In this document: piece after piece, positions 20,137 through 20,412 of the stretch | Layout: every line of letters starts with the position of its first letter | How positions within the stretch are numbered: the first letter of the stretch is position 1 | Origin: a virus | Taxonomy: Duplodnaviria; Heunggongvirae; Uroviricota; Caudoviricetes | Length of the DNA: 25,161 nt | Reading direction: 5' to 3' (one strand) | Virus record (IMG/VR): IMGVR_UViG_2851938318_000004 | The notes under the pieces: model-generated | The model's input: the letters and a program-made list of their open reading frames with translations, nothing else | Databases searched by the model: none | Told to the model about the DNA's origin: nothing | Position numbers and translations under genes: made by a program

Positions 20137-20412
20137 AAAAAAAGCCAGCGACTGACCTGAAAAAGAAGACGCTGGCTAAAAGGCCTTATATGTTTGTAGA
20201 GACTTATTTTTCACAGACAGCAATGATGCCTGTCAATATATTATCAATATGCGGATTGTTTCAGTTACAGATGCTTTATTAAGGAAAAAAACAGCCAGCA
20301 CTGACTTTCGGTGGAGAGGTGCTGGCTCAAAAGGATAGATGTACTTCACATGTTGCTTCTATATGGCAGTACATTTTCTGACAGACAGTGACGGATGTTG
20401 TCAAGATATTGT
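20137..20412 (+). repeat. Two imperfect tandem repeat units (about 150 bp period), each with an A-run, a 7-bp GC hairpin (GCCAGCG...CGCTGGC / GCCAGCA...TGCTGGC) and a conserved TTTTC-GACAGACAG...GTCAA-ATATT block
   Basis: Read directly from sequence, between nanS-p and the holin gene. Confidence 0.5.

Follow-up and report, generated by a model that had tools for sequence, protein, structure and literature searches.

A repeat between the nanS-p and holin genes of a lambdoid prophage contains the sRNA gene pasA and, by sequence, a diverged tandem paralogue on the same strand

PasA (pathogenicity-associated sRNA A) is an Hfq-dependent sRNA of prophage PP2 in EPEC E2348/69, encoded between E2348C_0688 and E2348C_0689 in the orientation '> < >' (PMC8550237, Table S6). 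Its major form has 85 nt (NC_011601, positions 743499..743415, minus strand) and a minor form of 236 nt extends to position 743264 (PMC8550237, Table S6). Binding to Hfq and dependence on it are known from northern blot and RIL-seq, and the RIL-seq partners are mostly trans-encoded core and virulence mRNAs with the seed motif (PMC8550237). The proposed seed, GCCAGCACCU, sits inside the 5′ arm of the terminator (PMC8550237, Fig. S5 text). Two RNAs of EHEC, EcOnc51 and EcOnc52, are listed as homologues of PasA (PMC8550237, Table S6). Both are catalogue entries only, given with neither northern size nor function; EcOnc52 is an Hfq-CRAC cluster in prophage Sp4 of EHEC O157:H7 Sakai (1181998-1182075, minus strand) without northern validation (PMC4104026). 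The synteny of esterase, PasA and holin genes has already been published by Zhu, Shabalina and Storz in 2026, who place the closest pas copies 22 kb apart, deny them an origin by tandem duplication, unlike OmrA/B or PrrF1/2, and read the 5′ end of PasA as a processing site of a longer transcript (bioRxiv 10.64898/2026.05.13.724894). Our search of the literature on EcOnc51/52 and on the function of PasA found nothing beyond these three reports.

Two further groups of sRNAs invite comparison with the locus described here. OmrA/OmrB of E. coli and PrrF1/PrrF2 of Pseudomonas are likewise adjacent, same-strand homologous genes of Hfq-type sRNAs, each with its own terminator. The anti-sRNAs AsxR (RF02703) and AgvB (RF02702) are alike in being prophage-encoded, Hfq-bound and short, with variable 5′ and conserved 3′ ends, and in belonging to the lambdoid late region. 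They differ in their site, which is just downstream of PR′ and not between the esterase and holin genes, and their Rfam models found no match anywhere in the stretch that we analysed.

That stretch of 25,161 nt (the window) belongs to a lambdoid prophage of pathogenic E. coli and represents its late region; O111:H8 and other EHEC chromosomes, as well as Stx1a-converting phages, match it at 100 % identity over the query. It contains three tRNA genes (17546-17795) and, upstream of nanS-p, an RNA of the STnc100 type (17872-18062). PasD2 was considered for the latter and rejected, as the RNA there is of the STnc100 type, and the PasD probe has no match anywhere in the window. The nanS-p gene (18285..20135, plus strand), recognised from its ORF and the annotation of identical loci, encodes a SASA-family sialate O-acetylesterase of 616 aa and its stop codon lies one base ahead of the A-run that opens the repeat. 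To the right of the repeat is the class II holin (pinholin) gene (20583..20789, plus strand), the first gene of the lysis cassette, with endolysin and spanin genes downstream. The gap between nanS-p and the holin gene measures 447 bp and the repeat fills its left two thirds. Neither RefSeq, across complete E. coli genomes, nor Rfam carries an annotation for the locus. Rfam covariance models run on 20050-20650 gave no family at the gathering score, and at E <= 10 only chance-level matches (12.9-17.7 bits against gathering thresholds of 39-108), because PasA is absent from Rfam. A small protein-coding gene was not found either; all overlapping ORFs have at most 38 aa and no frame is conserved across the units, and loop and run lengths vary by indels of 1-2 nt among unit variants. 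A 16-nt inverted repeat that brackets the module showed no covariation, its right arm being invariant and its left arm changing at synonymous sites without compensation.

The repeat consists of unit 1 at about 20137-20242 and unit 2 at about 20287-20410, each composed, on the plus strand, of an A7 run, a stem with its loop, AAAAGG and a shared block. In unit 1 the A7 run occupies 20137-20143, and the stem GCCAGCG (20144-20150) / CGCTGGC (20170-20176) has 8 bp including a flanking A-T pair and encloses a 19-nt loop. The A7 run of unit 2 is found at 20285-20291, and its stem, GCCAGCAC (20294-20301) / GTGCTGGC (20319-20326), has 9 bp, again including a flanking A-T pair, and a loop of 17 nt. The block reads ACAGACAG-N10-TGTCAATATATT (TGTCAA-N-ATATT) and lies at 20213-20242 in unit 1 and 20381-20410 in unit 2; with up to 2 mismatches allowed, these are exactly the two matches of the pattern in the window, where 0 are expected.

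Gapped local alignment of the two units gave 84 identical columns out of 129 and a score of 32 (z = 10), which exceeds all 2000 dinucleotide shuffles (10.96 ± 2.06, maximum 21.5) and all 1227 other stretches of the window (top score 18.5). Stringent local alignment had caught only the first 20-nt block and it was the milder gapped scoring that produced the full alignment. The claim of the initial annotation that the units resemble each other beyond chance therefore holds, and the chance-level similarity that it named as counter-evidence was not what the alignment returned. Its description of two units of roughly 130 bp that share an A-run, AAAAGG and the block stands as well, but not the single period of about 150 bp, since the distance is 150 bp between the hairpins and 168 bp between the blocks, nor the 7-bp stem, which has 8-9 bp. 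The extra 18 nt in the body of unit 2 explain the difference between the two spacings. Tandem Repeats Finder did not report the repeat, because the units are only about 65 % alike, differ by indels and lack a single period.

In minus-strand orientation, both units close with a GC-rich hairpin and a U-run behind it, the classic form of an intrinsic terminator. In unit 2, RNA folding gives the hairpin AGCCAGCAC / GUGCUGGCU at 20293..20327 (minus strand) with 9 bp and a 17-nt loop, followed by a G and U7 at 20292..20285. The hairpin of unit 1, AGCCAGCG / CGCUGGCU at 20143..20177 (minus strand), was obtained from both scan and fold and has 8 bp plus two inner pairs, with the U-run extending to 20137. 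On the minus strand the terminator scan called the site of unit 1, and on the plus strand it called none at either hairpin; there AAAAGG follows each hairpin and a T-run is absent. The curated record of phage 434 annotates both hairpins as minus-strand terminators and has a separate plus-strand terminator before the holin gene. Taken over 15 distinct variants that cover both types of unit, paired cells make up 90 % of the stem, and shifting the partner by 1-3 columns lowers this to 20-49 %. Four stem pairs show compensatory changes (C-G to U-A and G-C to A-U), for example from GCCAGCAC/GTGCTGGC to GCCAGTAC/GTACTGGC, and the related loci also contain the stems GCCAGUAC/GUACUGGC and GCCAGCG/CGCUGGC.

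The strand of the U-runs bears directly on the function suggested earlier. The repeat lies immediately upstream of the lysis cassette, its hairpins would form in plus-strand RNA too, and a dyad, GACAG-N9-CTGTC, overlaps the block of unit 1, so one could imagine that the hairpins serve in cis as terminators, anti-terminators or protein-binding sites for the late transcript, which runs rightward, and thereby set the expression of the lysis genes. We regard this as highly improbable. The U-runs are found on the minus strand only, which rules out termination or anti-termination by these hairpins of the late transcript that enters the holin gene from the left; the scan placed the plus-strand terminator-like hairpins further right and outside the repeat, at 20439-20456 and 20501-20527, the second of which, with its T-run just upstream of the holin gene (20501..20537), corresponds to the terminator in the phage 434 record. 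Moreover, the units coincide with published Hfq-bound RNAs of the minus strand (PMC8550237, PMC4104026), and loci with a single unit or disrupted by IS elements are common, which means that the pair is dispensable for the lysis cassette. Termination of the late transcript in cis by these hairpins is thus largely refuted. Of the options listed in the initial annotation, duplicated terminators are real, only for the strand opposite to the lysis genes; anti-terminators or protein-binding sites for lysis control found no support, as the terminators point away from the lysis genes. Its third option, a small RNA duplicated in tandem, was essentially right and had missed the strand, and its reservation that the sequence might be a known repeat family applies insofar as both units are members of an sRNA family already in the literature (PasA/PasC, EcOnc51/52). 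We conclude that the repeat very probably represents two tandem, diverged sRNA genes that are transcribed leftward, antisense to the phage late operon.

For unit 2 the assignment is straightforward. The intergenic region differs from that of E2348/69 in 4 of 491 columns (487 identical) without indels, and this alignment sets the offset between NC_011601 and the window at 723130. The 85-nt RNA, 5′ CUGCC...GCUGGCUGUUUUUUU 3′, maps by its published coordinates to 20285..20369 (minus strand) without a mismatch, so that it is identical to the RNA of E2348/69. The northern probe for PasA, GCCAGCACTGACTTTCGGTGGAGAG (PMC8550237, Table S6), matches 20294-20318 with 0 mismatches and does so in unit 2 only. 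Sequence, strand and neighbours (esterase gene to the left, holin and lysozyme genes to the right) are the same as in PP2, with no difference, and on this sequence identity unit 2 is the Hfq-dependent sRNA PasA. The 236-nt minor form maps to 20134..20369 (minus strand; PMC8550237, Table S6) and corresponds to a transcript that reads through the PasA terminator as far as the terminator of unit 1. Its end at 743264 equals position 20134 of the window, the end of the unit 1 U-run, and the unit 1 terminator is thus an experimentally observed stop for PasA read-through. PrrH, which spans PrrF1-PrrF2, is a longer read-through species comparable to this form.

The nature of unit 1 was more difficult to determine. 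We built a covariance model from 14 PasA, PasA-2-like and PasC-type sequences, leaving out those of unit 1. PasA (unit 2) was its best match in the window with 108.5 bits and unit 1 came second, over its full length (20135-20216, minus strand), with 32.1 bits and an E of about 1.4e-4, a value that rests on a rough calibration. The next match, with 15.5 bits, was the plus-strand reading of the unit 1 hairpin, and the best one outside both hairpins (7393-7453, minus strand) reached 15.1 bits. The 5′ arm of the unit 1 terminator, GCCAGCGUCU, is a near-match to GCCAGCGUCC of PasC. PasC, encoded by prophage PP5 of E2348/69, is like the present locus in occupying the slot after nanS-p and in its upstream block, and combines a PasA-like body with a GCCAGCG.../...CGCTGGC stem that resembles unit 1. 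PasC loci differ in having a single unit, and the body of unit 1 differs from theirs and is 18 nt shorter. One locus (L068) is a natural mosaic of a unit 1 body and a PasC hairpin, and parts of the units, as their sequences indicate, are recombined among related loci. Like PasA and PasC, both units are flanked by nanS-p and the holin-lysozyme genes and lie on the strand opposite to them, an arrangement found in at least 100 related loci, and both have a minus-strand terminator whose stem pairs are kept through compensatory changes. One stretch, CUCUACAAACAUAUAAGGCCUUUU, is specific to unit 1.

Independent evidence for an RNA from unit 1 is found in both published data sets. The coordinates of EcOnc52 fall on the unit 1 copy of Sakai Sp4, and the 5′ edge of the cluster is 1 nt from the start predicted for unit 1 (see below). 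EcOnc51, in Sakai Sp12, lies on the 3′ portion of a PasA-type copy of unit 2, at a locus that holds both units. In Sp4 unit 1 is solitary, an IS629 having inserted 21 nt upstream of the -35 TTGACA and replaced everything upstream of the block, and its loop is 2 nt shorter than that of unit 1 here, with one extra base ahead of the U-run. Since EcOnc52 was crosslinked in Sp4, where neither PasA nor its promoter is present, unit 1 is Hfq-crosslinked even without PasA. As a counterpoint to unit 1 expression in Sp4, EcOnc52 could stem from outward transcription by IS629. In EPEC, the RIL-seq data contain an entry named pasA.E2348C_0688.IGR for the stretch between pasA and the esterase gene, with a U-tract of 7 and five interactions, to which its authors attribute sRNA-like features (PMC8550237). 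One of its chimeras, escD::pasA.E2348C_0688.IGR at 743267-743294, maps to 20137-20164, the unit 1 terminator; escD is a gene of the LEE. Taken by sequence, strand and position, unit 1 is a diverged paralogue of the PasA/PasC family, equivalent to EcOnc52. An RNA of about 66 nt, 5′ CUCUACAAACAUAUAAGGCCUUUUAGCCAGCG...CGCUGGCUUUUUUU 3′, is predicted at 20136..20201 (minus strand), with EcOnc52 mapping, the covariance model and the fold in its favour; the 78-nt stretch containing it (20134-20211, minus strand) folds with z = -3.67.

Regarding transcription of the units, the situation was less clear. On the minus strand the shared block reads AAUAU(C/A)UUGACA-N10-CUGUCUGU and contains a perfect -35 hexamer. 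The promoter-like block upstream of PasA (20370..20410, minus strand) has TTGACA at 20404..20399, a 17-nt spacer and a weak -10, TCAGAA, at 20381..20376; the one upstream of unit 1 (20202..20242, minus strand) has TTGACA at 20236..20231, the same spacer and a weak -10, TGAAAA, at 20213..20208. The alternative -10 sequences GAAAAT for PasA (20378..20373, minus strand) and AAAAAT for unit 1 (20211..20206, minus strand) are better matches but lie 19-20 nt from the -35. From TTGACA and the 17-nt spacer, the start of PasA is predicted at 20369, exactly the published 5′ end, and the same geometry puts that of unit 1 at 20201. In both units TTGACA is accordingly 30 nt upstream of the 5′ end, which is observed for PasA and predicted for unit 1. 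Where unit 1 stands alone, as in Sakai Sp4 and on EHEC plasmids, the block has been kept. A consensus promoter scan called neither TTGACA promoter, and that of PasA was missed because its -10 is poor. We set aside the two weak sites that the scan did call, CAGACA-17-TATATT (plus strand) and CTGAAA-18-TATATT (minus strand), as 1.3 are expected by chance. None of the consensus sequences for sigma-E, sigma-32, sigma-54 and sigma-28 fits the shared block by eye. Most likely each unit has its own sigma-70-type promoter, that of unit 1 being putative; the assignment is provisional for both units because the -10 sequences are poor, the scan was silent and the 5′ end of PasA has been read as a processing site. 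Should this end be processed, the shared block would be leader sequence and not a promoter.

In the model that we propose, each unit would be transcribed from such a promoter, with the -35 supplied by the shared block and a weak -10. Both units look like ordinary Hfq-type sRNA genes, in which a variable 5′ body precedes a U-rich stretch (CCUUUU) and a terminator with at least seven U. Unit 2, as pasA, encodes the 85-nt Hfq-dependent sRNA, which acts by base pairing and holds the proposed seed in the 5′ arm of its terminator, and unit 1 has a shorter body and a terminator with a PasC-like 5′ arm. The PasA terminator is somewhat leaky, as a G breaks the junction between stem and U-tract, and a minority of transcripts stop only at the unit 1 terminator, which accounts for the 236-nt form. 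By analogy with the RIL-seq partners of PasA, the RNAs may allow the lysogen to regulate host and virulence mRNAs post-transcriptionally. The tandem loci may carry two seed types, the one of PasA and the one in the 5′ arm of unit 1, and we infer that unit 1 has a target set of its own. RNAduplex energies of unit 1 and PasA with the escD fragment from RIL-seq were no better than with shuffled targets (fractions 0.62 and 0.55, respectively).

Leftward RNAs from this gap are perfectly complementary to any plus-strand transcript that crosses it towards the plus-strand terminators and the holin gene, and the 3′ regions of nanS-p are found among the RIL-seq partners of PasA (PMC8550237). Both RNAs might thus pair in cis with the nanS-p 3′ UTR and the late transcript and cause processing or less read-through into the lysis genes in lysogens. 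We consider this improbable as the main role, given that the partners of PasA are mostly the trans-encoded mRNAs with the seed motif. An RNAduplex scan of nanS-p returned only long, loop-rich artefacts. Antisense action and two tandem sRNA genes are compatible and do not exclude each other.

Whether the locus holds two sRNA genes or one depends on unit 1. Unit 1 could be a decaying duplicate, kept as a back-up terminator and 3′ extension of pasA, with neither promoter nor targets of its own. For EPEC, the published table assigns the region of unit 1 to a PasA isoform, as its 3′ part and not as a gene, and has the minor form end at the unit 1 terminator (PMC8550237, Table S6), and the weak -10 and a unit 1 body that shows little sequence diversity among variants are in line with this. 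A single gene is nevertheless hard to reconcile with EcOnc52, which is Hfq-bound in a prophage that lacks unit 2 and its promoter and whose CRAC cluster begins within 1 nt of the predicted unit 1 start. Copies of unit 1 alone on EHEC plasmids, beside an 87-bp esterase remnant, are about 90 % identical and still have an intact block, stem and U-run, and the block with its perfect -35 is placed at an equal distance in both units. We find the decaying duplicate unlikely for these reasons and lean, with some reserve, towards unit 1 as an independently transcribed and functionally distinct member of the PasA/PasC family, so that in most such prophages the gap would be a tandem cassette of two sRNAs.

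The pair is common in related E. coli prophages. Searching IMG/VR with the block pattern returned 120 loci, among them 75 tandem pairs between esterase and holin genes, whose blocks are spaced by 158-169 bp (71 of them by 167 or 168 bp), and one further pair split by a 1.4-kb insertion. A single PasC-type unit was found in 26 loci and a single unit with a GTAC stem, directly 3′ of the esterase stop codon, in 9, and several more are cut by IS elements. Of 5426 complete E. coli genomes, 676 carry unit 1, at 2297 places of which 100 are on plasmids, 690 carry unit 2, at 2783 places, and 670 contain the whole 501-bp stretch. The pair is also present in Stx1 phages and phage 434. When one genome per species was scanned, it appeared only in Escherichia albertii, in agreement with the preprint (bioRxiv 10.64898/2026.05.13.724894). 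Eight single matches in unrelated taxa were discarded, as chance alone would give about 4 matches to a 19-base pattern in 596 Gb.

The locus is thus largely known already, through EcOnc51/52 in 2014, PasA in 2021, the synteny in the 2026 preprint and both terminators in the phage 434 record. As a modest refinement, we recognise the stretch 3′ of pasA as a diverged tandem paralogue, a reading that we did not find in PMC8550237, PMC4104026 or the preprint; neither paper on PasA presents the neighbouring unit 1 as a homologue. Compared with OmrA/B and PrrF1/2, the unit bodies are far more diverged (about 65 % in the aligned columns), a promoter of its own is putative for unit 1, and the locus sits on a prophage, where it is reshuffled by recombination. 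A blastn search with the 85-nt PasA query would miss unit 1.

Sequence reading alone recovered here a validated, virulence-associated prophage sRNA locus that is unannotated in RefSeq and Rfam, and the appropriate annotation would be two minus-strand sRNA genes rather than elements of lysis control. Surveys of Pas RNAs that use the 85-nt query overlook a paralogue about as widespread as PasA itself. Some interactions from RIL-seq that are ascribed to the long form of PasA, such as that with escD, would belong to a separate regulator if unit 1 is equipped with a promoter and a seed of its own. Unit 1 as a distinct member would also contradict the view that pas genes are never found in tandem, and the published copy numbers and target lists of PasA would then conflate two regulators.

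On the plus strand, the interval from the promoter-like block of PasA, the minus-strand sRNA encoded by unit 2, to the start codon of the holin gene holds two hairpins that resemble terminators and carry T-runs. The first occupies positions 20439-20456; the second (20501-20537), marked as a terminator in the phage 434 record, has a stem of 11 bp with TTTTTTGTTTT after it. In a lysogen, transcription of the esterase gene would end at these hairpins, and the Q-modified late transcript would need to pass them. A plus-strand fragment recovered by RIL-seq in EPEC, pasA.E2348C_0689.IGR (NC_011601 743494-743512), corresponds to window positions 20364-20382; it is antisense to the 5′ end and promoter of PasA, forms chimeras with PasB and is numerous in the non-activating condition (PMC8550237). 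The fragment may derive from the esterase 3′ UTR or from the late transcript.

Regarding the esterase gene itself, the coding end of nanS-p contains two plus-strand sites of interest (20104-20112 and 19932-19940, respectively). The first, GGTGCTGG, is the complement of the PasA seed; the homologous site in E2348C_0688, the esterase gene of E2348/69, is a PasA partner by RIL-seq (PMC8550237). The second, AGACGCTGG, is complementary to the stretch of unit 1 that is equivalent to the PasA seed, a match that could have arisen by chance.

Both units display a dyad at the -35 box. In unit 1 it reads GACAG-N9-CTGTC (20215-20233) and overlaps the -35 TTGACA, and the equivalent position of unit 2 is occupied by a weaker one, GACA-N11-TGTC (20380-20402). 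The dyad could be a site for a regulator or, alternatively, a hairpin within the 236-nt RNA produced when PasA transcription reads through its terminator and ends at that of unit 1; when this form was folded, the dyad bases were paired. The entire sRNA module, from the esterase coding end to just past the PasA block, is moreover enclosed by a 16-nt inverted repeat with arms at 20010-20025 and 20412-20427 (CAGGTTATAAAAGACA and TGTCATTTATAACCTG), complementary at 15 of the 16 positions. By rough estimate, chance would produce about 0.006 pairs of this kind per 1 kb, and the repeat was found in tandem as well as in single-unit loci. Among the related loci we identified no covariation between the arms: the left arm changes at synonymous sites and these changes are not compensated, so covariation gives no support for the repeat as a structure.

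Upstream of the esterase gene, a strong match to STnc100 (138 bits) was identified at 17872-18062 (+), in the slot that belongs to PasD2 in E2348/69. As the PasD probe was absent from the window, the locus contains the PasA pair together with an RNA of the STnc100 type. The window also carries two identical copies of ALIL, the frameshift pseudoknot of the IS3 family (2913-3029 and 24764-24880, both on the minus strand), the sRNA DicF (5430-5481, -) and the antitoxin RNA sok of a hok/sok module (12646-12820, +). An ORF of 237 aa directly upstream of the tRNA genes (16804-17517, +) may be an AraC-type regulator, a guess made from its translation.

Unit 1 is also found alone on EHEC plasmids, accompanied by an 87-bp remnant of the esterase 3′ end and adjoining IS600, as in the 95-kb plasmid of O26:H11 (NZ_CP031923.1; locus L136, 2415-2650). 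The scan of complete E. coli genomes recovered approximately 100 such plasmid places. The plasmid unit is about 90 % identical and keeps the promoter-like block, the stem (with one G-U pair) and the U-run, and the homology stops exactly at the expected start of the unit 2 terminator. In related loci, IS elements of the IS629/IS3 family have repeatedly inserted inside or between the units (L104, L105, L078 and L003), where they break the hairpins or push the two units 1.4 kb apart. The repeated insertions show that the gap between the esterase and holin genes is an insertion hot spot and that the pair of units is dispensable for the prophage.
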